Shown piece by piece: positions 19,329-34,183 of a DNA stretch of 64,000 bases; position 1 is the first letter of the stretch, and every line of letters starts with the position of its first letter. Origin of the DNA: Bacteroidota bacterium. Lineage in GTDB: Bacteria; Bacteroidota; Bacteroidia; 2-12-FULL-35-15. Both the position numbers and the translations under genes were made by a program. The DNA is taken from contig JAQZBR010000006.1 in the NCBI GenBank assembly GCA_029237775.1, positions 194,159 through 258,158 on the forward strand. Reading direction: 5' to 3'. The notes under the pieces were generated by a model. The model had not been told where the DNA came from. It saw only the letters and a program-made list of their open reading frames with translations, and did not search any database.

Positions 19329-21353
19329 ATGGATACCATCATAACTCAGGAGTCGCAATATTCCAGAAGCCTAATCGAAGCCAGCCTCGATCCTTTAGTA
19401 ACGATCAACACCACCGGTAAGATCACTGATATGAATCAGGCGCTTGCTGATATTACGGGTATCTCGAGAGAGGAATTGACCGGTACGGATTTCTTTGATT
19501 ATTTTACCGAACCACAGAAGGCCAGGGAAGTTTATCAGGAAGTTTTTGCAAAAGGCTCTGTGGCTGATTCACCTTTAACGCTTCGCCACAACGAAGGTAA
19601 GCTTACTGATGTGTCTTTTAACGGTTCTGTATATAAGGACGCATTGGGTAATGTGCTGGGTGTTGTGATTGTTGCCCGGGATGTAACTGAGCAAAAGAGA
19701 ATTGCCAAAGAACTTACTGAGGCGAAGGTGTTTGCAGAACTTGCTGCAGTAATCGCGGAAGAAGCAAAGAGTAAAGCAGAAAGTGCAACGCTTATAGCAG
19801 AGGCTGCTGTTAAATCCAAGCAACAGTTTTTATCGAATATGAGTCATGAGATTCGTACTCCTATGAACGCTATCATTGGATTTACAAAAGTACTCCTGAA
19901 AACGGAACAGAACAGCAAACAGCTTGAATATCTTAATGCAATTAAGACTTCAGGGGACGCGTTGATTGTTCTTATCAATGATATTCTTGATCTTGCAAAA
20001 GTAGATGCCGGTAAAATGACTTTTGCTCATATCCCTTTTAAGCTTTCATCATCCATATCGGCAATGCTTCATTTGTTCGAAACACGGATCCACGAAAAGA
20101 ACCTGGAACTAATTAAAGAATACGATTCTGCAATACCGGATGTACTCGTTGGAGATCCTGTCAGACTCCACCAGATAATATTAAATCTTGTTGGTAACGC
20201 TGTTAAGTTTACTTCTGAAGGAAAGATCAATGTAAGTGTAAAAATGACAGAGGACGATGCTGAATCTGCAACCATTCAATTTGCAATTACTGATACAGGA
20301 ATTGGGATCTCGGAAAATAAGCTTGGTAATATCTTTGATGATTTCCAGCAAGCTACAAGCGGTACATCAAGATTATATGGCGGAACGGGACTTGGACTCG
20401 CAATTGTTAAGCAATTGGTTGAAGCGCAAGGTGGAACAATTAAAGTGAATAGTACTGTTGGCCAAGGATCTACATTTGCGTTCAGTCTACGATTTGTCAA
20501 GACCAAGGCGAAGGCAGAAATTGAAAATGAACCCGGTGTAGAGCTTGAATCAGGTTTAAAGAATGCTAAAATATTAGTGGTTGAGGATATTGTTCTCAAT
20601 CAGCTTTTGATGAAAACCTTATTGGAAGATTTTGGATTTGAGATGGACATTGCATCTAATGGAAAGATAGCTATCGAGAAATTGAAGGAGAATCACTATG
20701 ACATTATTTTGATGGATCTGCAAATGCCTGAGATGAATGGATTTGAAGCTACAGAGTATATCAGGAGCCAGATGAAATCCAAGATACCCATTATTGCACT
20801 TACAGCAGATGTTACAACCGTTGATGTTGAAAAATGTAATGCTGTGGGAATGAACGACTATATTTCCAAACCCATAGACGATAAACTTCTCTATACTAAA
20901 ATACTTAAATACCTTAAGGGCACTGATTACAAAAAAGAAATGAGCCACGTTGTTTCATTCATAGAAGAGGATAATGATGAAAAGTGCACAGATCTTAGTT
21001 ATCTCATGAAGAGGACGAAATCAAACCCTGTGCTGATGATGGAGATGATCTCTTTATATCTTGAGCAAACGCCCCACCTTGTAAATTCAATGAAACACAG
21101 TTTGAAGGCAAAAGACTGGAAGAAGCTACATTCATCTGTGCATAAAATGATTCCCTCATTTTCAATTATGGGCATGACCGTAGATTCCGAGAATATGGCC
21201 AAGAAAGTTCAATCTTACGCAGCGGCACAGGAGCTAACGGATGAGATCCCGGACCTTGTTTACCAAATTGAGAATGTTTGCAGCAAAGCATGTAAAGAAC
21301 TAAATATAGAATTAAACCTGATGAAAAGCCAATTAGATGAAAACAGAAACTAA
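19329..21353 (+). CDS. Hybrid sensor histidine kinase (PAS, coiled coil, HisKA, HATPase_c, receiver, HPt)
   Basis: PAS-like N-terminus, H-box SHEIRTPMNAIIGF, G-box ..DTGIGISE...GGTGLGLAIV, receiver ILVVEDIVLNQ...ILMDLQMPEMNG, and a C-terminal HPt-like HSLKAKDWKKLHSSVHKM. Confidence 0.85.
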   Translation: MDTIITQESQYSRSLIEASLDPLVTINTTGKITDMNQALADITGISREELTGTDFFDYFTEPQKAREVYQEVFAKGSVADSPLTLRHNEGKLTDVSFNGSVYKDALGNVLGVVIVARDVTEQKRIAKELTEAKVFAELAAVIAEEAKSKAESATLIAEAAVKSKQQFLSNMSHEIRTPMNAIIGFTKVLLKTEQNSKQLEYLNAIKTSGDALIVLINDILDLAKVDAGKMTFAHIPFKLSSSISAMLHLFETRIHEKNLELIKEYDSAIPDVLVGDPVRLHQIILNLVGNAVKFTSEGKINVSVKMTEDDAESATIQFAITDTGIGISENKLGNIFDDFQQATSGTSRLYGGTGLGLAIVKQLVEAQGGTIKVNSTVGQGSTFAFSLRFVKTKAKAEIENEPGVELESGLKNAKILVVEDIVLNQLLMKTLLEDFGFEMDIASNGKIAIEKLKENHYDIILMDLQMPEMNGFEATEYIRSQMKSKIPIIALTADVTTVDVEKCNAVGMNDYISKPIDDKLLYTKILKYLKGTDYKKEMSHVVSFIEEDNDEKCTDLSYLMKRTKSNPVLMMEMISLYLEQTPHLVNSMKHSLKAKDWKKLHSSVHKMIPSFSIMGMTVDSENMAKKVQSYAAAQELTDEIPDLVYQIENVCSKACKELNIELNLMKSQLDENRN

Positions 21354-21771
21354 AGTTAAGATCTTCCTTGTGGACGATGATGCAGTATTATTAAAATCCC
21401 TTGAGATCGACTTTCTTCAACATGACGATTATGAGATTAAAACTTTTGCCACTGGCGAGCTGTGTATGGAGAATATTTCAAGTAAGCCTGATCTGATTAT
21501 TCTTGATTATCACCTGAACGGAATCAACTTCGATGCTATGAATGGGATCAATACCTTGGACAAAATTAAAGAGTATGACCATAATATTCCTGTTGTTATG
21601 CTTTCGTCCCAGGATGACATTAACGTTGCGGTGAACTGTATGCATCATAAAGCATTTGACTACGTTGTAAAAAGTGAAACAGCCTTTCTCAGGTTGCAAA
21701 AAATAATTGCTGACATTCTTCAGATGAAGGATATGAAAAAACAATTAAACTGGTATATGGAAAGAGCGTAA
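21337..21771 (+). CDS. Single-domain response regulator (receiver only)
   Basis: KIFLVDDDAVLLKSL...LIILDYHL receiver motifs. It overlaps the kinase stop by 17 nt, consistent with translational coupling. Confidence 0.8.
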   Translation: MKTETKVKIFLVDDDAVLLKSLEIDFLQHDDYEIKTFATGELCMENISSKPDLIILDYHLNGINFDAMNGINTLDKIKEYDHNIPVVMLSSQDDINVAVNCMHHKAFDYVVKSETAFLRLQKIIADILQMKDMKKQLNWYMERA

Positions 21772-21793: not shown

Positions 21794-21820
21794 AGCATTG
21801 CGATAGCAATGCTTTTTTTA
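21794..21820 (+). terminator. Rho-independent terminator (agcattgc-gata-gcaatgct-ttttttt)
   Basis: Perfect 8-bp stem with a 4-nt loop and a T7 run after the receiver gene. Confidence 0.55.
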
Positions 21821-21851
21821 TGCCCGTTTTTCCTTGATTCATGTTTTGGGG

Positions 21852-21917
21852 TGTGAATAATGCAAATCATCATTAGAGTTGTGTAACCGTTTCCGGTCCC
21901 TTTACAATCATCTTTGT
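21852..21917 (+). promoter_or_regulatory. Copy B of the conserved upstream element
   Basis: gTGTGAATaATGCAAatc...tgTGTAACcg...catcTTTGtatc, ~30 nt before ATG 21944. Confidence 0.4.
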
Positions 21918-21943
21918 ATCAAATTAAACTAATTATCGATAAC

Positions 21944-23914
21944 ATGAAATCAAGACTAATACTTTTAATATTGCTACTGAATATTTCCTCTTTTGCGGGG
22001 AAGAACCGAGACAACTCAAAATTTGAACGTGCGAACGAGACCTACAAGGCCGGGAATTTTTTTGAGGCTCTTCCTTTATATCTTGAGCTCTATAAAGCTG
22101 ATACCACTAATGCTAATATCAGTTATCTCGTTGGTGACTGTTATTTAAAAGGGCGGAACGGTAAGGCAAGTGCACTTCCATTTCTTATAAAAGCCACATC
22201 CTCGGTATCTCCAACATATAAATCCGGGAATGTTGAAGAAAGGAATGCTCCTGTGTTATCCTATAAGTTATTAGGAGATGCATACCACATCCATTCAAAC
22301 TTTGATAAAGCAATTGCTTCGTATGAAATGTACAAAGCTCAGCTAACCTTGAATCACGGAAAGGATAAATTGAATGTTATGGATGCAGATAGGAAGATCG
22401 CGATGTGTAAATCGGGGAAGAAATTGATGTCAACCCCTGTTCGGGTTAAAATTGAGAATCTTGGTAAAACAACCAATTCGGCCTTTGGCGATTACTCCCC
22501 TGTAATTACTGCTGATCAATCTGAAATGATATTTACTTCACGAAGGAAAGAAAGCACCGGTGGAAACACCTATGATGGCGGAAGGTATTATGAAGATATT
22601 TATATCAGCACCTATAAAGATGGTAACTGGACAACCGCTGAAAATATTGGAGCCCCCATCAATACTAATGAGAACGAAGCAACTGTAGGATTATCTCCTG
22701 ATGGCCAAGAAATATTGATCTATAAGGATGACAATGGTGACGGAAATATTTATTCTACAACCCTTGATGGTGATGTATGGTCAGTCCCCGTTAAAATGAA
22801 TTCAAATATTAATAGCAAGCATTGGGAACCCAGCGCTTTTATTTCTGCTGACGGGTTTTCAATATATTTTACAAGTGATCGTCCGGGCGGTTTTGGCGGA
22901 CGTGATCTTTACAAGAGCGAGCTTACCGAAAAAGGTGATTGGGGTAAGTCTGTTAATATGGGTGCCGAGATCAATACGCCATATGATGAGGATGCGCCTT
23001 TTATACATCCGGATGGGGTAACTCTGTTCTTCAGTTCTAACGGACATAATACAATGGGTGGATTTGATGTTTTCTACACTGCTTTGTCAGAGGACGGCAA
23101 GAAATGGTTAGCACCCGTGAATGTTGGATACCCTGTTAACTCACCGGATGATGACATTTTTTATGTAGTGTCGGCTGATAAGAAAAAAGCATATTACTCA
23201 TCATTCAAAGAAGGTGGTTTTGGCGAGAAAGACAATTACGTGATTACATTTCTCGATGAACAAAAAGCTCCCCTGGTTTTATTAAAAGGCTTTGTGAAAG
23301 ATTCAGACGGAAATGTACCTAAAGGTGTTTTGATTACAGTTACAAACAATGAAACAGGGAAAGTTGTCGGGACTTACAACCCAAATAAAAAAACAGGACA
23401 ATATTTATTTATTCTCCCTGCAGGAAAAAATTACAATATAGCTTATGAGGCTGACGGATATTTGTTTTATTCCGAAAACCGCGAGGTTCCTAAGAACACT
23501 AATTATTATGCAGTATATAAAGACATTCAGCTTCCTCCTGTTACTGTTGGGTCGCGGATTGTTCTGAACAATATCTTTTTTGATTTTGATAAAGCAACGC
23601 TCCGCACGACTTCTAACGTTGAGTTAAAGAACATCATGAAGTTCCTGAATAAATATCCTAAGGTTGTTGTTGAGATAGCCGGATTTACTGATTCTAAAGG
23701 TTCTGCAGAGTATAATTTAAAACTCTCAGAAGAAAGAGCAAAAGCTGTTGTTGCTTATCTGGCAGCTAAAGGAATAGACAATAAAAGAATGATCCCAAAG
23801 GGTTACGGTGAAGCATCTCCTGATGCAAAAAATAATAATGTTGATGGAACTGACAATCCTGAAGGTCGTCAGTTGAACAGAAGAGTTGAGCTGAAGATAG
23901 TGGATATTAAATAG
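21944..23914 (+). CDS. PorE-like OmpA-family protein (TPR + PD40 beta-propeller + carboxypeptidase-regulatory-like + OmpA_C)
   Basis: TPR-like N-terminus, PD40 repeats (FTSDRPGGFGGRDLYKS..), a CRD-like block (VLLKGFVKDSDGNVPKGVLITVTNNETGKVVG) and OmpA_C (FFDFDKATLR...AGFTDSKGSAEYNLKLSEERAKAVVAYL). ATG at 21944 was preferred over the upstream TTG. Confidence 0.7.
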   Translation: MKSRLILLILLLNISSFAGKNRDNSKFERANETYKAGNFFEALPLYLELYKADTTNANISYLVGDCYLKGRNGKASALPFLIKATSSVSPTYKSGNVEERNAPVLSYKLLGDAYHIHSNFDKAIASYEMYKAQLTLNHGKDKLNVMDADRKIAMCKSGKKLMSTPVRVKIENLGKTTNSAFGDYSPVITADQSEMIFTSRRKESTGGNTYDGGRYYEDIYISTYKDGNWTTAENIGAPINTNENEATVGLSPDGQEILIYKDDNGDGNIYSTTLDGDVWSVPVKMNSNINSKHWEPSAFISADGFSIYFTSDRPGGFGGRDLYKSELTEKGDWGKSVNMGAEINTPYDEDAPFIHPDGVTLFFSSNGHNTMGGFDVFYTALSEDGKKWLAPVNVGYPVNSPDDDIFYVVSADKKKAYYSSFKEGGFGEKDNYVITFLDEQKAPLVLLKGFVKDSDGNVPKGVLITVTNNETGKVVGTYNPNKKTGQYLFILPAGKNYNIAYEADGYLFYSENREVPKNTNYYAVYKDIQLPPVTVGSRIVLNNIFFDFDKATLRTTSNVELKNIMKFLNKYPKVVVEIAGFTDSKGSAEYNLKLSEERAKAVVAYLAAKGIDNKRMIPKGYGEASPDAKNNNVDGTDNPEGRQLNRRVELKIVDIK

Positions 23915-24036
23915 TATGAATAATGTAAATGATTAATAGAGTTATGTAATAGAAAAGGCTGTGATAAGATACACCTTTGTAACGTGAAATTTCACAACTG
24001 ACCGCCAGAAGCGGAAATAACAATAAGGATAAAATT

Positions 24037-24795
24037 ATGAAAACTAAAATATTAACAGTAATGACCATTCTTTCTATAGCGTTCGTTTCAGGATGTAAGA
24101 AAGATAAGGATACAGCACCAACGCCTTCGCCTTCACCGTCAACAAACACACAGCATATCCCTTTACAGACAACTTCACAGCCAACAGTTGCTATGGGAGC
24201 TGCAGCAACATTGGCAATTCTTGCAGGCTCAGCGATAAGCAATACAGGTGCAACACACATTACAGGAGATATGGGATTAAGCCCCGGTACATCTATAGGA
24301 GGCTTTCCTCCGGGAATACTTGTTGGGACACAGCATATCAATGATGCAATTGCAACTCAGGCAAAATTGGATCTGACTGCAGCTTATAATGATGCTGCAG
24401 GCAGAACTGCAACTGACATTGTAACCATCGCTGGAAATATTGGCGGATTGACGCTGACTCCTGGTCTTTATAAATCAACGTCTTCACTTGCTGTTTCATC
24501 AGGCGATGTGACCTTTGATGCAAAAGGTAACCCCAATGCAGTATTTATCATCCAGATTGCATCAACGCTTACAACCACTCCGGGTAGAAAAGTTATCTTA
24601 AGTGGCGGTGCTTTGGCTTCAAATATTTTCTGGCAAGTGGGAACATCTGCGACATTCGGGACAACCTCAGTATTTAAAGGTACGGTAATGGCGATGCAGT
24701 CAATTACCTTTAATACAGGTGCTACAATTGACGGAAGGGCTTTGGCAAGAAGCGGAGCGATTGTTATGGCAGGCAATACTATTGTTAAGCAGTAA
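24037..24795 (+). CDS. DUF3494 ice-binding-like family lipoprotein (single domain)
   Basis: Lipobox FVSGC, Pro/Ser/Thr linker, then MGAAATLAILAGSAISNTGATHITGDMGLSPG...DAKGNPNAVFIIQIAS...SNIFWQVGTSATFGTTSVFKGTVMAMQSITFNTGATIDGRALARSGAIVMAGNTI. This matches the IBP/DUF3494 beta-helix family. Confidence 0.7.
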   Translation: MKTKILTVMTILSIAFVSGCKKDKDTAPTPSPSPSTNTQHIPLQTTSQPTVAMGAAATLAILAGSAISNTGATHITGDMGLSPGTSIGGFPPGILVGTQHINDAIATQAKLDLTAAYNDAAGRTATDIVTIAGNIGGLTLTPGLYKSTSSLAVSSGDVTFDAKGNPNAVFIIQIASTLTTTPGRKVILSGGALASNIFWQVGTSATFGTTSVFKGTVMAMQSITFNTGATIDGRALARSGAIVMAGNTIVKQ

Positions 24796-24816
24796 CACTG
24801 CAATCATTAACGGGAA

Positions 24817-24849
24817 CGGGCAATGCTGTCGGCATTGTCCGTTTTTTTT
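24817..24849 (+). terminator. Rho-independent terminator
   Basis: cgggcaatgc-tgtcg-gcattgtccg followed by ttttttttc. Confidence 0.5.
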
Positions 24850-24862
24850 CTTTCAACCAATG

Positions 24863-24928
24863 TGTGAATCATGTAAGTTCTTTATGTAGTTGTGTAACAC
24901 ATTCGTCCATCTGTTGAAGCACCTTTGT
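24863..24928 (+). promoter_or_regulatory. Copy C of the conserved upstream element
   Basis: TGTGAATcATGTAAGttctttatgtagttgTGTAACac...caccTTTGtatc, ~35 nt before ATG 24964. Confidence 0.4.
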
Positions 24929-24963
24929 ATCGTGAAAATTAATTCACACCAAAAAATCTAAAA

Positions 24964-26571
24964 ATGAAATATAAATTACTTACAAAATTATCTGCTGCAA
25001 TGCTGCTTACAGTACCGGCTGTTAGCTTTGGTCAATCAATAAATCTGGGAACTGCAGCTAACTTCGCTTTGTTTTCTACGAATGGAGCAGTTGGAAATTC
25101 CGGGATTACACATGTTACTGGAAACGTTGGAACTAACAGCGGCTCAAGTACCGGATTCGGTAACGTAAATGGCCAGATGCACGATCAGGATCTTGTTAGC
25201 GCACAAGCTGCAGCAGACCTTTTGATCGCATACAATCAATTGAACAGTGCAACACCTACCTTTTTCCTTGCACCTTTGTTAGGAAACGGTGATACTTTAA
25301 CTCCGGGAGTTTACTCAGTATCCGGAGCAACTGTATTAAATTTAAATTTGTTTTTGAACGCGCAGGGTAATCCTAATGCTGTCTTTGTTTTTCAGATACA
25401 GGGTTCATTGTCTGCTAATGCCAATACCAAGATCAAACTGATCAACAATGCCAAAGCATGTAATGTGTACTGGAAGGTTGAAGGTCTTGTAAGTATAGCT
25501 GCTGCAACTACTATGAAAGGTACCATTATTGCAAATAATGCTGCTATTGAGATGAACACGAATGATTCACTTGAAGGAAGAGCCCTTTCTACAGCTGGAG
25601 CTGTTACCGTTGATGGAGTTCTTGTTTACACCCCAATTGGTTGTGGTAGCCCGACTTTAACCGGTCCTGCGGCTCCTGATCTTGCTTCTGTAGAATGTTA
25701 CGCAATATTCTCTTCTGACGGTGCAGTTACGAATTCAGGTGTTTCTTATGCAACAGGTGATATCGGAACAAATGTGGGATTAACGACAGGATTCAATTCA
25801 TTGAATGTATCAGGTAATGTTCACCCGATCCCTGATGGTTCTACTGCAGCTGCTGCATCCGATCTGTTAAATGTTTATACTTATCTGAATACATTACCTA
25901 CGGACATTGAGCTTTTATACCCTGCTCAGTTTGGTGCTGACCTTGTTCTTACTCCACATACATATCTTTTGAATGCTGCAACAGTATTTACTGATACATT
26001 ATATCTGGATGCTCAGGGAAACACAAATGCAATGTTCGTGATTAAGATCAACGGTGCACTTTCAACAAGTACATATGCAAATGTTAAGCTGATCAATGGT
26101 GCACAAGCAAATAACGTTTACTGGAAGGTTGACGGAGCTATTGAAATAAATGATTACTCCAAAATGGCTGGTACGTTCATCGCAAACAATGGTGCTGTTA
26201 ATGTTACTACAGGTGTAAATGTAAGAGGCCGTGTTTTATCTACTACAGGAACTGTTACAACAGAAGCAATTACTGCCAATGTTCAGACGATCTGTACACC
26301 AACAGGAATCAATGTTGTTGAAAAAACGGAACAGGTTATCAATGTATATCCAAATCCTTTCACAACATCTTTAACGATTAAGTTGGATGATAAATTCAAT
26401 ACATGTGAATTGCAGATCTTTAATGTGCTTGGAGCTGTTGTGTTTTCGAAAACACTTACAACCCAGAGCACAACTGTTTCAACAAACGATTTACCTGCAG
26501 GAGTCTATTTCTACAAGGTGATCACAAAATCTAACGTTATTCAATCAGGTAAGATTATCTCTCAGAATTAA
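24964..26571 (+). CDS. Tandem two-domain DUF3494 ice-binding-like protein with a T9SS type-A C-terminal sorting domain
   Basis: Signal peptide and two DUF3494 domains (LGTAANFALFSTNGAVGNSGITHVTGNVGTN... and CYAIFSSDGAVTNSGVSYATGDIGTN...), each with NAQGNxNAxFV..I and NVYWKV motifs. C-terminal VYPNPFTTSLTIKLDD...AGVYFYKVITKSNVIQSGKIISQN is a type A CTD. Confidence 0.75.
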   Translation: MKYKLLTKLSAAMLLTVPAVSFGQSINLGTAANFALFSTNGAVGNSGITHVTGNVGTNSGSSTGFGNVNGQMHDQDLVSAQAAADLLIAYNQLNSATPTFFLAPLLGNGDTLTPGVYSVSGATVLNLNLFLNAQGNPNAVFVFQIQGSLSANANTKIKLINNAKACNVYWKVEGLVSIAAATTMKGTIIANNAAIEMNTNDSLEGRALSTAGAVTVDGVLVYTPIGCGSPTLTGPAAPDLASVECYAIFSSDGAVTNSGVSYATGDIGTNVGLTTGFNSLNVSGNVHPIPDGSTAAAASDLLNVYTYLNTLPTDIELLYPAQFGADLVLTPHTYLLNAATVFTDTLYLDAQGNTNAMFVIKINGALSTSTYANVKLINGAQANNVYWKVDGAIEINDYSKMAGTFIANNGAVNVTTGVNVRGRVLSTTGTVTTEAITANVQTICTPTGINVVEKTEQVINVYPNPFTTSLTIKLDDKFNTCELQIFNVLGAVVFSKTLTTQSTTVSTNDLPAGVYFYKVITKSNVIQSGKIISQN

Positions 26572-26599
26572 TCTTTAAGTAAGTTTAGTTCGAGTGTCG

Positions 26600-26637
26600 G
26601 AACGTCCGCTGTGAAAACAGCGGGCGTTCTGTTTTTA
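26600..26637 (+). terminator. Rho-independent terminator
   Basis: gaacgtccgctg-tgaaaa-cagcgggcgttc followed by tgttttta. Confidence 0.5.
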
Positions 26638-26643
26638 TAGATG

Positions 26644-26708
26644 TGTGAATAATGCAAGTTATATGCTTAGTTCTGTAACATATCCGGAACTAAATAAAGG
26701 ACATTTGT
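26644..26708 (+). promoter_or_regulatory. Copy D of the conserved upstream element
   Basis: TGTGAATaATGCAAGtt...ttcTGTAACat...gacaTTTGttgc, ~35 nt before ATG 26743. Confidence 0.4.
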
Positions 26709-26742
26709 TGCTCAAATATTAATAATGATAAATCAATTTAAA

Positions 26743-29700
26743 ATGAAACGTAAAGCTCTCTTATTACTCACGGCCGCTATACTGCTCCTTCCGAAAATAA
26801 ACTTGGCTCAGGCTCCTGTTCTTGGAACAGCCGCTGATTTTGTGCTGTTTACTTCTGTTGGTGCATTAAGTAACACCGGCATATCGCAACTTACAGGAAA
26901 TGTAGGTTCCAACAGCGGTTCCAGTACCGGATTCGGAAACGTGAATGGTGTAATGCATAATAATAACGGTACTACTGCTGCTGCTGCTGCCGATCTTAAT
27001 CTGGGCTATAATCAGCTTAACAGTGCTATACCTACATTTTTTCCAGCCCCTTTGCTTGGTAACGGACAAACATTGAATGCAGGAGTTTATTCCATTTCAG
27101 GAGCATCAACGCTTAATCTTGATCTAACACTTGATGGACAGGGAAATCCTAATGCGATTTTCATTTTCCAGATTCAAGGACCTTTCTCTGCAAATGCCAA
27201 TGCAAAAGTAAAGTTGATAAATGACGCACAGGCCTGTAATGTGTTCTGGAAAGTAGAAGGACTTGTTAGTCTTGCTTCTGCCGTAACCATGAGAGGAACC
27301 ATTGTAGCAAACAATGCTGCAATTAATATGAGTACGAATGACACTCTTGAAGGCAGAGCCCTTTCAACTGCCGGGGCTATCACGATTGACGGAACTCTTG
27401 CTTATAAACCTATCGGTTGTGGAAGCGCTGTTTTAACAGGTCCATTAGCACCAACGCTGGGAGCTACAGCCTGTTACACTTTATTCACATCGATAGGTCC
27501 TGTTACTAATGCCGGTGTAACCAATGTTACCGGTGATATCGGAAGTGATAACGGAACAACTACGGGTTTTAATCCTTTGCTGGTGGTTGGTATGATTCAT
27601 GGAACTCCAGATGGTTCAACGGCTTTAGCTGCTTCTGACCTTATCAGCGTATATAATTATCTTAACGGGCTCCCTTACGATATTGAATTATTGTATCCCG
27701 CCCAATTCGGTAACAATCTGGTACTGACTCCACATACTTACCGGATGAATTCAGCTGCAACATTTACTGATACTTTGTATCTGAACGGAGAAGGAAATCC
27801 TAATGCTGTTTTTGTTATTCAAATCAACGGTGCACTTGCTACCAGTACCTATTCAAAAGTTAAACTGATCAATGGTACACAGGCGAAGAATGTTTTCTGG
27901 AAAGTAGAAGGTGCTGTAAGTATTAATGATTACTCTGTTTTCAGAGGAACCATCGTAGCTAATAATGGAGCTATAAGTATGACCACAGGGGTGTATCTTG
28001 ATGGAAGAGCATTAACAACAACAGGTGCAGTAAATACTGCAGCTATCACTGCTATTATGCCTCCGGGCTGCGGTGCTACTGCGACTTCTCCTGTTATTTC
28101 CCTTCAACCGAATGATCAGCTCGTATGTGCAGGTGATTCTGCCGGGTTTTCTGTAACAGCTGTCGGAACAGGCCTTTCATATCAATGGAGAAGAGGAACT
28201 GTTAATCTTGTGAACGGAGGAAATATTTCCGGAGCAACTTCTGCGGTGTTATCAATTAATCCGGTGTCGGCTGCCGATACAGCCTATAATTATAATGTAA
28301 TTGTGAGCGGAATGAGCTCACCTAATGATACTTCGGATAATGTTTCTCTTGGCATCACAAATGCTATTGCAATAACCTCGGAGCCTATGGGACAGACACT
28401 ATGCCCCGGAGACTCTGCATTTTTTACTGTTATGGCTCCTGGTTCAGGATTAACATATCAGTGGAGAAAAGGAAATGTTGACCTTATTAACGGAGGTAAT
28501 ATTTCGGGCGCAACTTCTGCCACTTTAACAATAGACCCTTCGTCAATAGCTGATACAGCTTTTAATTATAATGTAATTGTAACAGGGTCATGCGGAAGTG
28601 ATACATCAGTGTATGCTTTTTTAATGATCACCAATGGTGTAAGTATTACCTCTGAGCCAATGAATCAGATAAGCTGTCTTGGCAGCTCTGTAAGTTTTGC
28701 GACTGTTGCAAGCGGTTCAGGACTTACTTACCAGTGGAGAAAAGGGACAGTTAACATGGTCAATGCCGGAAATATTTCCGGTGTGAATACAGCAATGTTA
28801 TCTGTTAATCCTGTTACCGGTTCTGATGCGGCACTTAATTATAATGTTATCATTAACGGTTCATGCGTAAGTGATACATCAGTTAATGTTTCGTTAACGG
28901 TTGACAGTATCCGTATCACTACAGAGCCTTCAAATGAGTTTGTATGTATTGGAACACCTGCAAGCTTTTCAGCTGTTGCTGCAGGTTCCGGAATGTCATA
29001 CCAATGGAGAAAAGGTGCGGTTAATATGGTTAACGGAGGTAACATCTCCGGTGTGAACACGTCAGTTTTAACTATTAACCCTTCAACTATCTCTGATATT
29101 GCAACTAATTATAATCTTATAGTCACAGGAACTTGTGGGAATGATACTTCATTGAATGTTTCATTGAACATCGACAGTACACGTATAGTATCTGTGTCGC
29201 CAAATCAGTCTGTCTGTCTTGGAAACTCAATCGCTTTCTCTGTAAATGCACTCGGTTCAGGGCTTACTTACCAATGGAGGAAGGGTGCGGTTAATCTGGT
29301 TAACGGAGGTAATATCTCAGGTGCTACCACTTCGGTGTTAACTATTAACCCTGCAACAATCCTTGATAATGCAACCAATTACAATGTTATTGTTAGCGGT
29401 TCTTGTGGTAATGATACATCAGCAAATGTTACTCTTAATGTAGTAACGGCTCCTACAGCAACTGCCGGAAGTAATTCTCCGGTATGTACAGGAAGTGCTA
29501 TCAACCTTACCGCTGTAACTGTTTCAGGTGCCAATTACTCATGGTCGGGGCCGGCAGGATATTCATCTTCAACACAAAATCCTGTTATTCTTTCTGCATC
29601 ATTTTCTGATGCCGGCAACTATTCACTTACAGTGTCACAAGGTGGCTGTACTTCATTTCCTTCTGTAGTAGCAGTTGTTGTTAATAATTGTAATTCTGAT

Positions 29701-30330
29701 CTGAGTGTAATCAAATCGGTTAATACAGCAACGCCTTTCTTTGGAACACAAGTGACCTTTGTGATCACCGCAACCAATAATGGCAGTGGAACTGCAACAG
29801 GCGTAGTCGTAAATGATGTTCTTCAAAACGGGTATGTTTATGTTTCCTCTTCAGTAACTGCAGGTTCTTATGATGTACTGACAGGTGAATGGGTTGTCGG
29901 TAATATGATCGATAATTCAACTGAAACATTGACCATGACAGCAACTGTAGTTGAAGGTGGTAATTATGTTAACACGGCAATTATTTATGGAAATGAATCA
30001 GATCCTGATATGACAAATAATAATTCATCGGTGGAAACATTCCCAACCGATTTCTTTATCCCTGAAGGATTTTCTCCTAATGGTGATGGCATCAACGATC
30101 TTTTTGTGATCCGCGGGATCCGTAATTATCCGGAAAACACATTTGTGATCTTCAACCGTTGGGGTGATAAAGTTTTTGAGGCTAATCCATATACAAGTGA
30201 ATGGGATGGTAAATGTGGGAAGGGCTTAAGGCTCGGAGGTGAGCAGCTGCCTATCGGAACATATTTCTATATCCTTGACCTGGGTAATGATACTGACATC
30301 ATTAAAGGAACTATCTATCTGAACAAATAA
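26743..30330 (+). CDS. Large T9SS type-B cargo: two DUF3494 ice-binding-like domains, ~6 Ig-like repeats, DUF11, gliding-motility-associated C-terminal domain
   Basis: The N-terminal ~430 aa are ~70% identical to the 535-aa neighbour. Six ~95-aa repeats (..GSGLTYQWRKG(A/T)VN(L/M)VNGGNISG..NYNVI..GSCG.DTS). DUF11-like NSDLSVIKSVNTATPFFGTQVTFVITATNNGSGTATGVVVNDVL. C-terminus FFIPEGFSPNGDGINDLFVIRGI...WDG is a type B CTD. Start taken at MKRKALLLL (26743); the ORF-track start is 26725. Confidence 0.75.
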   Translation: MKRKALLLLTAAILLLPKINLAQAPVLGTAADFVLFTSVGALSNTGISQLTGNVGSNSGSSTGFGNVNGVMHNNNGTTAAAAADLNLGYNQLNSAIPTFFPAPLLGNGQTLNAGVYSISGASTLNLDLTLDGQGNPNAIFIFQIQGPFSANANAKVKLINDAQACNVFWKVEGLVSLASAVTMRGTIVANNAAINMSTNDTLEGRALSTAGAITIDGTLAYKPIGCGSAVLTGPLAPTLGATACYTLFTSIGPVTNAGVTNVTGDIGSDNGTTTGFNPLLVVGMIHGTPDGSTALAASDLISVYNYLNGLPYDIELLYPAQFGNNLVLTPHTYRMNSAATFTDTLYLNGEGNPNAVFVIQINGALATSTYSKVKLINGTQAKNVFWKVEGAVSINDYSVFRGTIVANNGAISMTTGVYLDGRALTTTGAVNTAAITAIMPPGCGATATSPVISLQPNDQLVCAGDSAGFSVTAVGTGLSYQWRRGTVNLVNGGNISGATSAVLSINPVSAADTAYNYNVIVSGMSSPNDTSDNVSLGITNAIAITSEPMGQTLCPGDSAFFTVMAPGSGLTYQWRKGNVDLINGGNISGATSATLTIDPSSIADTAFNYNVIVTGSCGSDTSVYAFLMITNGVSITSEPMNQISCLGSSVSFATVASGSGLTYQWRKGTVNMVNAGNISGVNTAMLSVNPVTGSDAALNYNVIINGSCVSDTSVNVSLTVDSIRITTEPSNEFVCIGTPASFSAVAAGSGMSYQWRKGAVNMVNGGNISGVNTSVLTINPSTISDIATNYNLIVTGTCGNDTSLNVSLNIDSTRIVSVSPNQSVCLGNSIAFSVNALGSGLTYQWRKGAVNLVNGGNISGATTSVLTINPATILDNATNYNVIVSGSCGNDTSANVTLNVVTAPTATAGSNSPVCTGSAINLTAVTVSGANYSWSGPAGYSSSTQNPVILSASFSDAGNYSLTVSQGGCTSFPSVVAVVVNNCNSDLSVIKSVNTATPFFGTQVTFVITATNNGSGTATGVVVNDVLQNGYVYVSSSVTAGSYDVLTGEWVVGNMIDNSTETLTMTATVVEGGNYVNTAIIYGNESDPDMTNNNSSVETFPTDFFIPEGFSPNGDGINDLFVIRGIRNYPENTFVIFNRWGDKVFEANPYTSEWDGKCGKGLRLGGEQLPIGTYFYILDLGNDTDIIKGTIYLNK

Positions 30331-30363: not shown

Positions 30364-31305
30364 ATGAAAACATTTAAAACAATAGGCATCGTGTTGATTT
30401 CGGCACTTGGCGGTATAACAGCCAATGCACAGCAAGCCCCGATGTACACTCATTACATGTATAACACACTTTCTGTAAACCCCGCATACGCAGGGAGCAG
30501 AGAAGCTCTGACTGTCACTGCCCTCCACCGTTCGCAGTGGGTTGATTTCAAAGGAGCTCCTGTTACACAAACCCTGACTCTTCATGCTCCTTTAAGAAAT
30601 GAGCATATTGGTGTCGGGCTGTCATTATCAAATGATAAAATTGGCCCCAATCACAATATTTCGGCTTTTGCAAACTTTGCGTACATAATGAAAGTTTCCG
30701 CAAAATCGAAGCTTGCCCTGGGATTGAGTGCTGGTGCCAATATCTTTCAATCAAATGTAAATTCGATTCAGTTGGAGGGACAGGAAACTGATCCTGTTTT
30801 TCAGACGAATATCAATAACCATGTGACACCTAATTTTGGTTTGGGTGCCTATTATTACAGGGAGCGGTTTTATGCGGGGATATCTGCACCAAATCTTCTT
30901 CAGAATAATTATTCAGTGATAAAGGTGGACGGAAACACTTTAATTGGTAAAGAGCAAAGACACTTTTTCCTGATTGCCGGGACTGTGATCCCTATTTCAA
31001 GCGACCTGGCTTTTAAACCGACAACACTCGTTAAAGTTACATCCGGTGCACCGGTTCAGGCTGATCTTACAGCATCTTTCGTTATCATGAAAAAACTTCT
31101 GATAGGTGCGATGTACCGCTCAGGTGATGCTTTCGGTGGACTGGTTGGTGTGGATATTACCGAACAATTTCATGTAGGTTATTCATACGATTGGTCTTAC
31201 GGATTAAAAACAGCCAAGTACAACCAGGGAAGTCATGAAATTGTATTAAGATACGATTTCATCTATCCAAGCAAGAAACAGATCCATTCACCCAGATATT
31301 TTTAA
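30364..31305 (+). CDS. PorP/SprF-family T9SS outer-membrane protein
   Basis: Signal peptide then QQAPMYTHYMYNTLSVNPAYAGSREALTVTALHRSQW (family motif). C-terminal ..HEIVLRYDFIY. It is a paralogue of the 5230..6114 gene. Confidence 0.8.
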   Translation: MKTFKTIGIVLISALGGITANAQQAPMYTHYMYNTLSVNPAYAGSREALTVTALHRSQWVDFKGAPVTQTLTLHAPLRNEHIGVGLSLSNDKIGPNHNISAFANFAYIMKVSAKSKLALGLSAGANIFQSNVNSIQLEGQETDPVFQTNINNHVTPNFGLGAYYYRERFYAGISAPNLLQNNYSVIKVDGNTLIGKEQRHFFLIAGTVIPISSDLAFKPTTLVKVTSGAPVQADLTASFVIMKKLLIGAMYRSGDAFGGLVGVDITEQFHVGYSYDWSYGLKTAKYNQGSHEIVLRYDFIYPSKKQIHSPRYF

Positions 31306-31323: not shown

Positions 31324-33261
31324 ATGAAGAAATTATATATACCATTAGTATTATTAACAGCGCTCTCCCTGAGTCTTAGCGCTCAGGAGAAATCACGGAA
31401 AGAACGTGAAGGTGATAAATATGCCTTTCGCTACTCTTTCGATAAAGCAATCGAATCGTATACTCATGCCAAGAATCTTAGTCCGGATGGGCAAAGAAGG
31501 CTCGCGGAAAGTTACAGTAAGATGGATCAGAATAAAGAAGCTGAAATCGTCTATGCAAAACTGATCGGTTCAGGCATCGGCCTCATTGCTGAAGATTATT
31601 ATAATTATGCAATGGTAATGAAAGCCAATGCGAAATATGATGAGGCTAATAAAACAATGGATAAATTCAGCGAGCAAAAGCCGGATGATCTGCGCGCAAA
31701 GAGTTATGCTGGTTCTAAAGCATCCTTTGCTGATTTGCTGAAAGATAATGGCAGCTTTAAAGTTGAAACCTTAAAGGTGAATACCGCTGCACAGGATTTC
31801 GGAACTTCTTTCTATAAAGACCAAATTGTATTCGCTTCCACAAGGTCAGCTGCCAAGATGGTTAAACGATCATATAACTGGAACGGTATGCCTTTCCTTA
31901 ATATGTTCGTTGCAGATAAGGATGGTACCCAGTTAAAAGATCCTAAAAGATTCGATAACAGCCTTAACGGTAAAATGCATGATGGCCCTGGCAGCTTTAG
32001 CAGAGATGCAACCTTTATGGCATACACTAAAAATCATTTTAAAGACAAAAGCAAAGATAAAGTCGTAGAGCTTCAGATTTGTTTCAGCACTTTCAGAGAC
32101 GGAAAATGGTCAGAGGAAGAGCCTTTTAATTATAATAATAATGAATATTCTGTAGGTCAGCCATTTCTGACTGAAGATGGTAATACAATGTACTTTACAA
32201 GTGATATGCCGGGCGGGTACGGAGGCAGTGACCTTTACAAAACCTCAAGAATGCCGGGTAGTGCATGGAACAAACCTGAAAATCTTGGCAATAGTATTAA
32301 CACTGAAGGGGATGAAATGTTTCCATTTGTGGAATCTGAAAAAGGTGTACTGTACTTCTCTTCCAATGGTTTATCCGGATTGGGCGGAACAGATATTTTT
32401 ACAAGTGTGATCACTAATGGTGGATATGGCTTACCTAAAAATTCGGGTAGCCCATTGAATACACAATACGATGATTTTGCATGTATCGTTGACAGCAAAA
32501 CACATAAAGGGTATTTTTCATCGAACAGGTCAGGCGGTAGCGGTGCTGACGATATTTACGGTGTTGAAGTTTTGAAGGTTGCTGATATTCAGAAGAGGAT
32601 CGAAGGCTTTGCACGAGACAGGAACTTAAAGGTTCTGGGCGGTGTATCAATAACACTTCTTGATGAATCGAATAAAGTACTGGATACAATTACTACTAAC
32701 GCGGATGGCTCATTCAGCTTCAAAGTTGCTTCGAATACCAATTATTTACTTACCGGTAAGAAAAAGAAATTCAATGACGGAAATAATGTTGCAAATACCA
32801 ATGGCAATGAAGCGGTTGTCAAAGCTGATGTCATCCTGCTCACTAAAGCGGAAGCCATTGCCTCTGAAATAAAGGAGGGAAAAGATCTCGCTGAACTTCT
32901 TGCTTTGAATACAATTTTCTTTGATTATGGAAAATCTGATATCCGTAAGGATGCGGAGCCTGATCTCGATAAGATCATTGAGATTATGAATGCGTATCCT
33001 GAAATGATTGTGGAATTTCGTTCATACACAGATTGCAGATCAACAAAAGAGTTTAATCAGTTATTATCAGAACGGAGAGCCAAAGCGTCTTCTGAATATG
33101 TAAGACAAAAGATCTCTAATCCTTCCAGGATCCATGGTAAAGGATATGGAGAACCTAAGCTCGCAAGTTTATGCCCTTGTGAAGGGCCTGTGCTTTCTGA
33201 ATGTTTAGAAGGTGAACACCAGAAGAACCGGAAAACAGAATTTATTATCGTTAAAAAATAA
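31324..33261 (+). CDS. PorE-like OmpA-family protein (TPR + PD40 propeller + CRD-like + OmpA_C)
   Basis: PD40 repeats (FTSDMPGGYGGSDLYKT.., FSSNGLSGLGGTDIFTS..), a CRD-like block (IEGFARDRNLKVLGGVSITLLDESNKVLDT), and OmpA_C (IFFDYGKSDIRKDAEPDLDKI...RSYTDCRS...SERRAKA). Confidence 0.7.
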   Translation: MKKLYIPLVLLTALSLSLSAQEKSRKEREGDKYAFRYSFDKAIESYTHAKNLSPDGQRRLAESYSKMDQNKEAEIVYAKLIGSGIGLIAEDYYNYAMVMKANAKYDEANKTMDKFSEQKPDDLRAKSYAGSKASFADLLKDNGSFKVETLKVNTAAQDFGTSFYKDQIVFASTRSAAKMVKRSYNWNGMPFLNMFVADKDGTQLKDPKRFDNSLNGKMHDGPGSFSRDATFMAYTKNHFKDKSKDKVVELQICFSTFRDGKWSEEEPFNYNNNEYSVGQPFLTEDGNTMYFTSDMPGGYGGSDLYKTSRMPGSAWNKPENLGNSINTEGDEMFPFVESEKGVLYFSSNGLSGLGGTDIFTSVITNGGYGLPKNSGSPLNTQYDDFACIVDSKTHKGYFSSNRSGGSGADDIYGVEVLKVADIQKRIEGFARDRNLKVLGGVSITLLDESNKVLDTITTNADGSFSFKVASNTNYLLTGKKKKFNDGNNVANTNGNEAVVKADVILLTKAEAIASEIKEGKDLAELLALNTIFFDYGKSDIRKDAEPDLDKIIEIMNAYPEMIVEFRSYTDCRSTKEFNQLLSERRAKASSEYVRQKISNPSRIHGKGYGEPKLASLCPCEGPVLSECLEGEHQKNRKTEFIIVKK

Positions 33262-33282
33262 AAATTCAATTTGAAATCAGAG

Positions 33283-33317
33283 CACCATCCCCAACAGGAT
33301 GGTGTTTTTGTTTTTAC
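33283..33317 (+). terminator. Rho-independent terminator
   Basis: caccatcc-ccaaca-ggatggtg followed by tttttgttttt. Confidence 0.55.
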
Positions 33318-33341
33318 GTTTCCCTGATTGTTTTCCCTTTG

Positions 33342-33406
33342 TGTGAATTATATAACTCTTCTCTGAATTGTATAACATTTACAGGTGATAAAAGACTCAC
33401 TTTTGT
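33342..33406 (+). promoter_or_regulatory. Copy E of the conserved upstream element (degenerate: TATATAAC/TATAAC variants)
   Basis: tTGTGAATtATATAACtc...tTGTATAACat...tcacTTTTGtatc, ~40 nt before ATG 33448. Confidence 0.35.
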
Positions 33407-33447
33407 ATCAGATTATAAACTGCCGGAAGGCTATAAATACAAAAAAC

Positions 33448-34053: not shown

Positions 34054-34078
34054 CAGCGAAGGTGAATAAGAGTGAGTG

Positions 34079-34144
34079 TGTGAATCATGTAACATATTCA
34101 ATAAGTTCTGTAACACATCTGCATTCACGATAGTTCACCTTTGT
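34079..34144 (+). promoter_or_regulatory. Copy F of the conserved upstream element
   Basis: TGTGAATcATGTAACat...ttcTGTAACac...caccTTTGtcaa, ~40 nt before ATG 34184. Confidence 0.4.
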
Positions 34145-34183
34145 CAAAGTTAAATATTAAATCAGAATTTAAATTTTATAAAA

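Follow-up and report, generated by a model that had tools for sequence, protein, structure and literature searches.

Three consecutive genes in the window, the whole 64,000-nucleotide stretch of Bacteroidota DNA that was analysed, probably encode genuine ice-binding proteins held at three distances from the cell, one tethered, one secreted and one displayed on a stalk, which together would form a coordinated ice-management system. They occupy positions 24037–24795 (gene 1), 24964–26571 (gene 2) and 26725–30330 (gene 3) of the forward strand, exactly where the sequence-only reading had placed them, and form part of a gene island that carries regulators of its own and is found again in related genomes. 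All three are members of known protein families; their wiring and regulon appear to be undescribed.

The earlier count of one, two and two DUF3494 domains in genes 1, 2 and 3 is borne out by the Pfam profile PF11999 (Ice_binding, gathering score 28.7), which matches the three proteins with E-values from 8e-64 to 1e-73, a domain signal far beyond chance expectation. The match consists of one stretch in gene 1 (215.5 bits, E 8e-64), two in gene 2 (246 bits) and two in gene 3 (236 bits). Structure models of gene 1 and of the gene 3 module superpose on crystal structures of ice-binding proteins, and all 31 significant fold matches in the PDB for either model are ice-binding proteins. The observations of the sequence-only reading are confirmed, while its interpretation of the trio is partly supported.

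The 252-residue product of gene 1 is a single-domain ice-binding lipoprotein, as had been proposed. It begins with MKTKILTVMTILSIAFVSGC, a lipobox, and comprises a signal peptide (residues 1–19), the lipidated Cys20, a Ser/Thr/Pro linker up to about residue 44 and a β-helix (residues 45–252). It matches EfcIBP (PDB code 6EIO), a protein from the bacterial consortium of the Antarctic ciliate Euplotes focardii, with E 8e-102 and 76–80% identity; the alignment runs from the linker through the C-terminus and both proteins are cap-less single β-helices. The model of gene 1, in which residues 1–38 are disordered, superposes on 6EIO with a TM-score of 0.93 and an rmsd of 0.8 Å. EfcIBP is reported to produce a thermal hysteresis of 0.53 °C at 50 μM and to shield cells from freezing. 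In contrast to EfcIBP, gene 1 has a lipobox with C-K-K after it, and so do nearly all of its homologues: the lipobox is kept in 17 of 17 orthologues read at related loci and in 114 of 120 database homologues, and C-K-K follows it in every one of those 114, so the family is probably lipid-anchored. The EfcIBP-type β-helix would then be tethered to the outer membrane through a linker of ~17–25 residues. A conserved C-K-K-D after the lipidated Cys is a hint, short of proof, that the protein is exposed on the surface. The full C-K-K-D-K-D is an incomplete match to C-X-K-(D/E)2, the surface-export signal established by experiment, and for this reason gene 1 could face the periplasm.

Gene 2 encodes an IBPv-type protein of 535 residues, with a Sec signal ahead of domain A (residues 24–228; 25033–25647), domain B (residues 229–446; 25648–26301) and a type-A C-terminal domain (CTD) of the T9SS (residues 461–533; 26344–26562). 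The latter, already recognised in the sequence-only reading, scores 52.3 bits with PF18962/TIGR04183 against a cut-off of 23. IBPv (PDB code 5UYT) is a two-domain antifreeze protein of the Flavobacteriaceae isolate 3519-10 from the Vostok ice core. The two proteins are collinear (E 1e-176, 58.5% identity over 508 residues without gaps, CTD included) and correspond in their two domains, two disulfides, domain B alanine row and C-terminal region. The part played by the last 88 residues of IBPv in its activity was left unexplained in the original paper; this C-terminal region scores as a type-A CTD of the T9SS (46.2 bits, cut-off 23). The extracellular fraction contains IBPv, which increases the freeze-thaw survival of E. 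coli more than 100-fold. Gene 2 would form a rigid double β-helix that leaves the cell in two steps, through Sec and, via its type-A CTD, through the T9SS (the PorV shuttle route). Like IBPv, it is probably freed into the liquid around the cell, where it would act against ice recrystallisation. No T9SS core genes lie within the window.

The open-reading frame of gene 3 has 1201 codons, of which Met7 (26743) is the likely start, and an identical NCBI protein begins at this residue. Profile searches and repeat comparison divide it into domains A and B (residues 29–451; 26809–28077; PF11999), five Ig repeats (residues 453–906; 28081–29442; Ig-type profile matches and repeat alignment), a divergent Ig-like domain (residues 909–990; 29449–29694), a DUF11 domain (residues 992–1104; 29698–30036; 106.7 bits) and a type-B CTD of the T9SS (residues 1112–1200; 30058–30324; PF13585/TIGR04131, 52.4 bits, cut-off 35), in agreement with the DUF11 domain and CTD assigned earlier. 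The five repeats are 90–92 residues long and pairwise 53–66% identical, while the sixth has 82 residues and 27–35% identity, so that the earlier description as six Ig-like repeats is a fair one. The model of residues 29–455 (pLDDT 91.6) superposes on 5UYT with a TM-score of 0.97 and an rmsd of 1.2 Å over 422 columns; unlike gene 3, IBPv has neither the stalk nor the type-B CTD.

Genes 2 and 3 share a two-domain module with 67.1% identity across 423 gap-free residues, close to the ~70% over ~430 residues estimated by eye, and their domains pair off, A with A (70.7%) and B with B (63.8%). Identity at third codon positions is 40%, and in a neighbour-joining tree the two copies fall separately, each among its orthologues in other species; on these two grounds the duplication is taken to be old. 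Gene 1 shares only 28–36% identity with any of the four domains, which places it, by sequence comparison, in a separate lineage of the EfcIBP type. The proposal that one passenger module was duplicated onto three anchoring routes therefore holds for genes 2 and 3 but not for gene 1.

The function of the trio, earlier considered open, is less open than supposed, since the experimentally active EfcIBP and IBPv are close relatives of genes 1 and 2 and the residues that define the IBPv ice-binding site by mutagenesis are kept. The substitutions A364L, A391L and A410L drastically impair the thermal hysteresis of IBPv, from 2.11 °C to below 1 °C. The equivalent residues are Ala365, Ala392 and Ala411 in gene 2 and Ala370, Ala397 and Ala416 in gene 3, and alanine occupies these positions in 100, 97 and 98 of 103 related modules, respectively. 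Both IBPv disulfides and T214 are also kept. Several observations point the other way. In contrast to IBPv, G429 is replaced by Thr in gene 2 and Ala in gene 3, and S431 by Thr and Asn, correspondingly; Leu174, the residue blamed for the weak activity of IBPv domain A, is retained in domain A; and genes 1, 2 and 3 score 145, 93 and 95 bits with the NCBI ice-binding equivalog NF045625, far below its cut-off of 400.

The missed NCBIfam equivalog cut-off would fit proteins that have no relation to ice, that is, general surface adhesins or substrate-binding β-helices in which DUF3494 binds another regular surface (polysaccharide, mineral or another cell) and gene 3 is an ordinary Ig-stalk adhesin. 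The DUF3494 family has indeed been described as ice-binding and substrate-binding in many environments, and for some of its members from habitats without ice a role in substrate binding or adhesion has been discussed. An architecture of Ig repeats, DUF11 and a type-B CTD is typical of Bacteroidota adhesins, homologues bear the JGI label “gliding motility-associated-like protein”, and the isolate labels of related MAGs span many habitats, temperate ones included. Such a function is nevertheless improbable in view of the 76–80% and 58% identity to two proteins of measured ice activity, the almost invariant alanine row and the ice-binding nature of every significant structural neighbour. Several related MAG labels (MDV, MGR, GFS, GL, ant_bin, palsa) presumably denote polar, glacier or permafrost data sets.

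As an ice-binding protein, gene 3 would display its double helix on the end of a stalk formed by the six Ig-like domains and DUF11 and would serve as an ice adhesin or a stand-off ice shield. Spacing of an ice-binding domain off the cell by tandem Ig-like domains is also seen in SfIBP_1 of Shewanella frigidimarina (PDB code 6BG8) and MpIBP of Marinomonas primoryensis, which are proposed or shown ice adhesins. Gene 3 differs from them in its double DUF3494 module at the N-terminal tip, only ~28% identical to 6BG8, and in its anchor, which would consist of the type-B CTD with PorP/SprF and PorE-like proteins rather than a type I secretion RTX adhesin or proteobacterial anchor. The ice-binding domain of MpIBP has a different fold.

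A PorP/SprF-family membrane protein (30364–31305, forward strand; PF11751, 275 bits; TIGR03519, 274 bits, cut-off 90.55) is encoded 33 nucleotides past gene 3. The operon, which has no terminator from gene 3 through PorP to the PorE-like gene, ends with the latter (31324–33261, forward strand; TPR, PD40, CarboxypepD_reg and OmpA_C; NF052230, 290 bits, below its cut-off of 600) and a terminator at 33279–33308. A PorP-type gene lies downstream of related type-B ice-binding genes at 27 of 27 loci, followed by a PorE-like gene at 24. The type-B CTD would pass gene 3 to the adjacent PorP/SprF protein, its presumed cognate shuttle and anchor; the PorE-like protein is presumed to be the peptidoglycan anchor of the complex, and the two would fix gene 3 statically to the cell wall. 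Surface anchorage of type-B CTD proteins in P. gingivalis involves their association with PorP-like proteins, and the described domain order of PorE matches that of the protein encoded here (PMC12773672). The order and families are the same in Fjoh_3952/Fjoh_3951/Fjoh_3950 of F. johnsoniae and PG1035/PorP/PorE of P. gingivalis, whose passengers have no known function, in contrast to the predicted ice-binding module here. For Fjoh_3952, a type-B cargo whose operon also supplies an SprF-like shuttle and a PorE homologue, static anchoring to the cell wall has been proposed. A second PorE-like OmpA protein is encoded directly upstream of gene 1 (21914–23914, forward strand; profile searches and synteny) and accompanies genes 1 and 2 even in genomes without gene 3.

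The type-B CTD and the adjoining SprF-family gene recall SprB/SprF, homologues carry gliding-associated labels and another protein of the window has SprB repeats, all of which would suit a mobile SprB-type adhesin moved by the gliding motor, with the cell gliding on or along ice. Gene 3 itself has no SprB repeats in the profile search, and the dynamic type-B substrates of F. johnsoniae (SprB, Fjoh_4750, Fjoh_1123) are not co-encoded with a PorE-like gene, whereas Fjoh_3952, whose operon holds a PorE homologue, behaves as static. With a PorE-like gene in the gene 3 operon and at 24 of the 27 related loci, a gliding role is unlikely and static display is preferred.

The order lipoprotein, type-A, type-B, PorP and PorE-like is also found at the loci L002, L003, L007 and L017, and the trio recurs in this order in at least four other species with 60–90% protein identity. 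This recurrence argues against redundant paralogues whose signals arose by drift or domain shuffling without division of labour, as does the clustering of every paralogue among its orthologues, a sign that distinct forms have been retained over the long term. Redundancy would be in line with the tandem ice-binding gene clusters, often of identical architecture, that are common in sea-ice MAGs, and with the wide variation among relatives in the kind of CTD and in the number of Ig domains, which ranges from 0 to more than 23; some type-A genes carry Ig repeats. In a variant of this explanation gene 1, with its incomplete surface-export signal, is periplasmic and protects the envelope from inside, leaving two surface routes. 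That C-K-K is kept in 114 of 114 homologues points to selection for a sorting signal and away from drift, and there is little probability in either form of this explanation.

Each gene of the trio has its own promoter, and the three promoters have a 42-nucleotide element in common. Forward-strand copies precede gene 2 (24860–24901; nhmmer 40.0 bits; CACCTTTG box at 24920) and gene 3 (26641–26680; 36.5 bits). The sequence-only reading had noted the element at two of the three genes; this is too few, since a weak copy precedes gene 1 (23917–23950; 12.9 bits, E 0.38; CACCTTTG box at 23972) and five further promoters of the island bear the element, that of the AraC-family regulator among them. Intrinsic-terminator hairpins on the same strand, each followed by a T run, lie after gene 1 (24812–24846; 16-pair stem) and gene 2 (26598–26631; 15-pair stem with nine GC pairs).

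The candidate regulator operon (18641–21771, forward strand), identified by element search, profile searches and synteny, comprises the element (18641–18680), an AraC-family HTH protein (~18750–19307), a PAS-HisKA-HATPase-REC hybrid kinase (19329–21353) and a single-domain receiver (21337–21771), and in many related MAGs lies in synteny with clusters of ice-binding genes. The element also precedes several envelope or stress genes. As it is common to all three genes, to this operon and to the envelope and stress genes, the trio is probably switched on together. A cold-responsive regulon is not a given, because IBPv is expressed constitutively in its host between 4 and 25 °C. All eight matches of the element in the window are on the forward strand within 18.6–37.4 kb. 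At related loci, 212 of 223 matches are on the strand of the ice-binding genes, and 89 of 125 such genes have a match in the ~3% of sequence around the start.

The three genes were found exactly where the sequence-only reading had placed them, at 24037-24795 (gene 1), 24964-26571 (gene 2) and 26725-30330 (gene 3) on the plus strand, with products of 252, 535 and 1201 amino acids, and all features recognized by eye were present in them. Their scores against the Pfam family PF11999 (Ice_binding) are 215.5, 246 and 236 bits, respectively, compared with a gathering score of 28.7, and the matching stretches, one in gene 1 and two in each of genes 2 and 3, confirm the five DUF3494 domains. Scores against the NF045625 IBP_CFB equivalog (145.1, 93.2 and 95.4 bits for genes 1-3) are far under its curated cut-off of 400. 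The three products are DUF3494 proteins of the ice-binding type, which fall outside this narrow equivalog.

The expected fold, a beta-helix of the IBP-1 type, is reproduced by AlphaFold models. The model of the gene 1 product (pLDDT 82.6 overall, high within the domain, with residues 1–38 disordered) superposes on PDB entry 6EIO with a TM-score of 0.93 and an rmsd of 0.8 Å. That of the two-domain module of gene 3 (residues 29–455, pLDDT 91.6) superposes on 5UYT with a TM-score of 0.97 and an rmsd of 1.2 Å, a fit from which the mutual placement of the two domains is predicted to be retained. The models display the beta-helix of triangular section with a long alpha-helix alongside that characterizes DUF3494, one such helix being predicted per domain, and for each model all 31 significant PDB matches are ice-binding proteins. 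It is fairly likely that all three proteins bind ice and are sorted as described here; confidence is higher for ice binding by the gene 1 and gene 2 products and lower for the exact location of the gene 1 product and for co-regulation.

Gene 1 aligns with 6EIO from the linker to the C-terminus (E 8e-102), with 76% identity across 210 columns in the Foldseek comparison. 6EIO is EfcIBP, a protein of the bacterial consortium associated with the Antarctic ciliate Euplotes focardii, for which a thermal hysteresis of 0.53 °C at 50 µM was measured and which shields proteins and cells from freezing. The N-terminus of gene 1 reads MKTKILTVMTILSIAFVSGC-KKDKD, where a hydrophobic signal segment leads to a lipobox, FVSG-C20, followed by a Ser/Thr/Pro linker. 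The assignment as a lipoprotein is upheld by the conservation of the lipobox, which is present in all 17 orthologues from related loci and, among 120 database homologues, in 114. These homologues are the best 120 of at least 6622 relatives with E ≤ 1e-30; they are around 250 residues long and 75–90% identical to gene 1. In the 114 sequences that have it, the lipobox is followed by an invariant K-K, mostly as K-K-D/E, and then by a linker with a median length of 17 residues. The protein family to which EfcIBP belongs thus seems to consist of lipoproteins.

The export signal of surface-exposed lipoproteins in Bacteroidota, as determined by experiment, is C-X-K-(D/E)2-X, placed immediately after the lipidated cysteine (Lauber et al. 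2016). The corresponding stretch of gene 1, C-K-K-D-K-D, matches this motif in part, with Lys at position +3 and Asp at +4 but Lys at +5, which makes exposure of the product on the surface plausible. Among the 114 homologues, C-x-K-[DE] occurs in 84 and the full export motif in 23. Annotations of the gene differ: at 24037-24341, on both strands (L001, 1944-2832), JGI calls a 174-residue product and an antisense open-reading frame of 117 residues, and NCBI a 244-residue product. The conserved N-termini of orthologues support the form of 252 residues with the full signal peptide.

Gene 2 matches 5UYT over residues 25–533, C-terminal domain included (E 1e-176), with 58.5% identity over 508 residues in an essentially gap-free alignment. 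5UYT is IBPv from a Flavobacteriaceae isolate of the Vostok ice core, which has a thermal hysteresis of about 2 °C at 50 µM and is expressed constitutively in its own host from 4 to 25 °C. The extracellular fraction contains IBPv, and the same fraction raised freeze-thaw survival of E. coli more than 100-fold. The sequence-only reading had left the function of the three proteins open; an ice-binding role is now made likely by the close homology of genes 1 and 2 to EfcIBP (76%) and IBPv (58.5%), both with measured activity. The products are new members of known families, of the EfcIBP and IBPv types.

The signal peptide of gene 2, read from the sequence, is MKYKLLTKLSAAMLLTVPAVSFG with Q following the cleavage site, and the alignment to the 5UYT chain (from its residue 3) opens at residue 25, just past this site. 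At the other end, residues 461–533 form a type-A C-terminal domain (CTD) of the T9SS (type IX secretion system), as had been proposed, with 52.3 bits for TIGR04183 against a cut-off of 23 and an additional match to PF18962. No electron density was obtained for the final 88 residues of IBPv, and the structure paper termed their role in activity unexplained. The C-terminal 96 residues of IBPv in 5UYT align to 26344-26562, and the IBPv C-terminus itself matches the type-A sorting domain (TIGR04183, 46.2 bits, cut-off 23), suggesting that these 88 residues are a T9SS sorting domain. This score, together with the extracellular location of IBPv, supports export of gene 2-type proteins through the T9SS and their subsequent release. 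Type-A CTDs use the PorV shuttle, and their cargo is then either static on the surface or released to the medium.

The ice-binding face of IBPv has been defined by mutagenesis. The replacements A364L, A391L, A410L and G429L each cut thermal hysteresis drastically, from the wild-type 2.11 °C to below 1 °C; with S431Y the loss was 25%, and T214Y lowered the activity of domain A. The first three alanines correspond to Ala365, Ala392 and Ala411 in gene 2 and to Ala370, Ala397 and Ala416 in gene 3. Gly429 is replaced by Thr in gene 2 and Ala in gene 3, and Ser431 by Thr and Asn, respectively, while Thr214, Leu174 and both disulfides are kept in both proteins. Among 103 double-domain modules from related genomes, Ala is found at the equivalents of positions 364, 391 and 410 in 100, 97 and 98 cases; the equivalent of position 429 is Ala in 81, and the second row is Ser, Thr or Asn. 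The near constancy of the three alanines indicates that the face is strongly conserved in the double-domain family, with genes 2 and 3 covered by the residue check.

The relationship between the modules is uneven. Domain A of gene 2 is 70.7% identical to domain A of gene 3, and the two B domains share 63.8%, while any A domain compared with any B domain gives 42–48% and gene 1 compared with any of the four gives 28–36%. The double modules of genes 2 and 3 are 67.1% identical over 423 residues without gaps, in agreement with the roughly 70% over some 430 residues estimated by eye. A recent duplication, or gene conversion between the two genes, was rejected in view of an identity of only 40% at third codon positions and of the grouping of each gene with its own orthologues: in a rough neighbor-joining tree of 103 modules, drawn without support values, gene 2 falls with the type-A orthologues of the related loci L003, L007 and L084, and gene 3 with the type-B orthologues of L002, L003, L007, L009 and L012. 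On the same evidence, the two-domain unit was duplicated in the distant past, as the sequences indicate, and its copies were retained with different tails in genes 2 and 3. The idea of one module copied onto three anchoring routes thus stands for genes 2 and 3 and fails for gene 1, which belongs to the EfcIBP lineage. A third ice-binding domain placed after the Ig repeats was seen in four related loci (L021, 9956-13798; L025, 9625-12774; L042, 1-4788; L066, 11801-17956). This domain is nearest to gene 1 (49–52% identity), and therefore both ice-binding lineages are fused in one protein elsewhere.

In gene 3, the start of which is probably Met7 (26743) as in the NCBI record, the module is followed by Ig-type domains, DUF11 (106.7 bits in Pfam) and a type-B CTD at residues 1112–1200 (TIGR04131, 52.4 bits, cut-off 35; PF13585 CHU_C, 90.7 bits), so that both the type-A and the type-B assignments score over their NCBIfam cut-offs. 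The six Ig-like repeats that had been counted consist of five similar ones, 90–92 residues long with 53–66% mutual identity, and a divergent sixth of 82 residues. Tandem Repeats Finder detected no DNA-level tandem repeat in gene 3; the repeats have diverged in DNA and the array is therefore old, without recent expansion. The architecture is like that of the ice adhesins MpIBP and SfIBP_1, with an ice-binding domain, a tandem Ig-like extender and a predicted anchor. With typical domain sizes, six Ig-like domains and DUF11 would place the ice-binding tip some tens of nanometres off the outer membrane.

Gene 3 is followed after 33 nt by a PorP/SprF gene (30364-31305; TIGR03519, 274 bits, cut-off 90.55) and, after a further 18 nt, by a PorE-like gene (31324-33261) with TPR, PD40, CarboxypepD_reg and OmpA domains, which scores 290 bits for NF052230 (cut-off 600) and 365 bits for NF053607 CHU_0125 (cut-off 620). 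There is no terminator in either gap. In related loci with enough downstream sequence, the gene next to a type-B ice-binding gene is PorP/SprF in 27 of 27 cases, and a PorE-like gene comes after it in 24 of 27. Type-B CTDs pair specifically with PorP/SprF-like shuttles, usually encoded in the neighborhood, and type-B CTD proteins are reported to bind PorP-like proteins, by which they are anchored at the surface (PMC9143113). Flavobacterium johnsoniae has five operons that each combine a type-B cargo, an SprF-like shuttle and a PorE homolog, while its mobile substrates (SprB, Fjoh_4750, Fjoh_1123) are encoded in operons without a PorE-like gene. By analogy, gene 3 fits the static type-B class.

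None of the T9SS core genes (SprA/Sov, GldK-N/PorK-N, PorU, PorV) lies within the 64-kb window, which contains PorP/SprF and PorE-like genes, two of each, and six cargo genes that bear a CTD. From this content it is very likely that the source organism has a T9SS. A second type-B set is made of a cargo gene (1970-5227), its own PorP/SprF (5230-6114) and a PD40/PKD protein (6117-7679), and three further type-A cargo genes are located on the minus strand (15442-17349, 53816-58423 and 59915-62992).

Strong hairpin terminators were found after the receiver gene (21794-21813), after gene 1 (24812-24846), after gene 2 (26598-26631) and after the downstream PorE-like gene (33279-33308), and therefore genes 1 and 2 are separate units, while gene 3 leads a three-gene operon. 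The gene order is kept in the related loci L002, L003 (a place found in L004 and L005 too), L007 and L017: an AraC-family gene, a PAS kinase and a receiver come first, followed by a PorE-like gene in most, the lipoprotein, the type-A protein, the type-B protein with Ig repeats and DUF11, PorP/SprF and a PorE-like gene. Sub-modules occur elsewhere, with the lipoprotein and type-A genes only in L046, L084 and L085, and the type-B operon only in others. The upstream PorE-like gene (21914-23914) adjoins gene 1 and stays beside the lipoprotein and type-A genes in L046, L084, L082 and L076, which lack the type-B gene and PorP. A conserved set 3′ of the trio (33385-39539) encodes unknown proteins of 222 and 192 residues, an outer-membrane beta-barrel protein, DUF5670, DUF4421, YtxH, a holin-like protein and an AI-2E transporter; part of it bears the upstream element described next, and its content suggests an envelope or general-stress role.

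The sequences upstream of the three ice-binding genes align with one another and with those upstream of the AraC gene and the open-reading frame at 34184. Their common pattern is ATGTGTGAATnATGTAAGTT, 8 nt, AGTTnTGTAACA, about 22 nt and CA(C/T)(C/A)TTTG, the final box being around 40 nt 5′ of the start codon; we take the TTTG box to be the Bacteroidota -7 element. The 20-nt head of the element occurs four times in the window compared with 0.18 expected. An nhmmer profile of the 42-nt core, built from eight sites of which four are in the window and match by construction, gives eight matches in the window, all on the plus strand and all in one 19-kb island (18.6-37.4 kb). They precede the AraC operon (18641-18680, 30.0 bits), the upstream PorE-like gene (21851-21887, 24.9 bits), gene 1 (23917-23950, weak at 12.9 bits), gene 2 (24860-24901, 40.0 bits), gene 3 (26641-26680, 36.5 bits), the 222-residue open-reading frame (33340-33377, weak at 14.6 bits), a 73-residue open-reading frame followed by the beta-barrel gene (34077-34116, 40.7 bits) and YtxH (37334-37370, 19.6 bits). 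The element is thus not confined to two genes of the trio, as had been thought, since gene 1 has a weak copy and five other promoters carry it too.

In 83 related loci, nhmmer found 223 matches to the element, and 212 share the strand of the ice-binding genes; 89 of 125 ice-binding genes have a match within -200 to +150 of the opening of the reading frame, an interval equal to about 3% of the searched sequence. Two other promoter definitions were discarded: a strict regular expression covering the whole module failed to pick up most related loci, and the sigma-70 consensus gave 27 sites compared with 36.9 in shuffled sequence, a deficit expected for Bacteroidota.

The operon at about 18750-21771 encodes an AraC-family regulator, a PAS-HisKA-HATPase-REC hybrid kinase and a single-domain receiver, with the same element in front. 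The start codon of the AraC gene is probably near 18750, since the listed TTG-start open-reading frame at 18636 overlaps the element. In many metagenome-assembled genomes (MAGs), the operon lies in synteny with clusters of ice-binding genes. The 42-nt part may be an activator site, for which the neighboring AraC-family protein is the candidate binder; this protein would control its own expression and answer to the PAS hybrid kinase and the receiver. It is tentatively hypothesized, as a possibility rather than a probability, that the trio forms the centre of an "ice-management island", conserved and self-regulated, in uncultured Bacteroidia, in which the AraC protein, kinase and receiver co-induce about eight units through the element. 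These units would comprise ice-binding proteins at three distances (on a lipid tether, on a peptidoglycan-anchored stalk and diffusible), two PorE-like wall anchors, and YtxH, DUF4421, the outer-membrane beta-barrel protein and the AI-2E transporter as envelope or stress functions. If the kinase senses cold, freezing or linked osmotic stress, the system would amount to a bacterial regulon dedicated to the freeze response, with its cis element defined.

DUF3494 ice-binding proteins are known in tandem gene clusters, with double-domain forms concentrated in Flavobacteriales and Ig-like domains as the commonest partners, for which a tethering role was proposed; ice adhesins such as MpIBP and SfIBP_1 are known as well. 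A cold-induced antifreeze-like protein of lipoprotein type from an Antarctic Flavobacterium is a different, 402-residue protein. An Arctic survey judged localization by signal peptides and transmembrane domains only, and no mention of lipoproteins was found in its matching passages. In the searchable literature, no paper was found that links type IX secretion to DUF3494, or a C-terminal sorting domain to ice binding; of the four publications naming both ice binding and the T9SS, none is titled on the link, and in one of them the two stand in separate contexts. Within a known kind of system, the apparent novelty lies in gene 3 together with the PorP/PorE operon, in the three-way arrangement and its conservation, and in the promoter element that the genes share.

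Microbial ice-binding proteins have mostly been studied singly, as soluble recombinant domains, and little is known of their placement on the cell and their control. Here one organism retains three forms with three sorting signals, in an arrangement conserved between species, and each form has a close counterpart that is experimentally characterized or mechanistically understood (EfcIBP, IBPv and the Fjoh_3952-type operon). The results suggest that EfcIBP, which is in wide use, is a member of a lipoprotein family and that a promoter element next to a candidate regulator is common to the ice-binding genes of many Bacteroidota. In practical terms, the proteins are candidate cryoprotectants, and the locus offers a handle on ice management by bacteria of ice veins, frozen soils and lakes.

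Proteins related to gene 3 are numerous, with at least 999 in the database at E ≤ 1e-10, the best 120 all having E = 0; "ice-binding family protein" and "gliding motility-associated-like protein" are frequent names among them. Gene 3-type loci number at least 592 in species-representative genomes, nearly all Bacteroidota MAGs, and several of their isolate labels presumably refer to data sets from polar sites, glaciers or lakes. The stretch immediately upstream of the island encodes two large sensor-type proteins (8681-11872 and 13285-15390) that end in SpoIIE/PP2C phosphatase domains, one with Reg_prop/Y_Y_Y and the other with TPR repeats.
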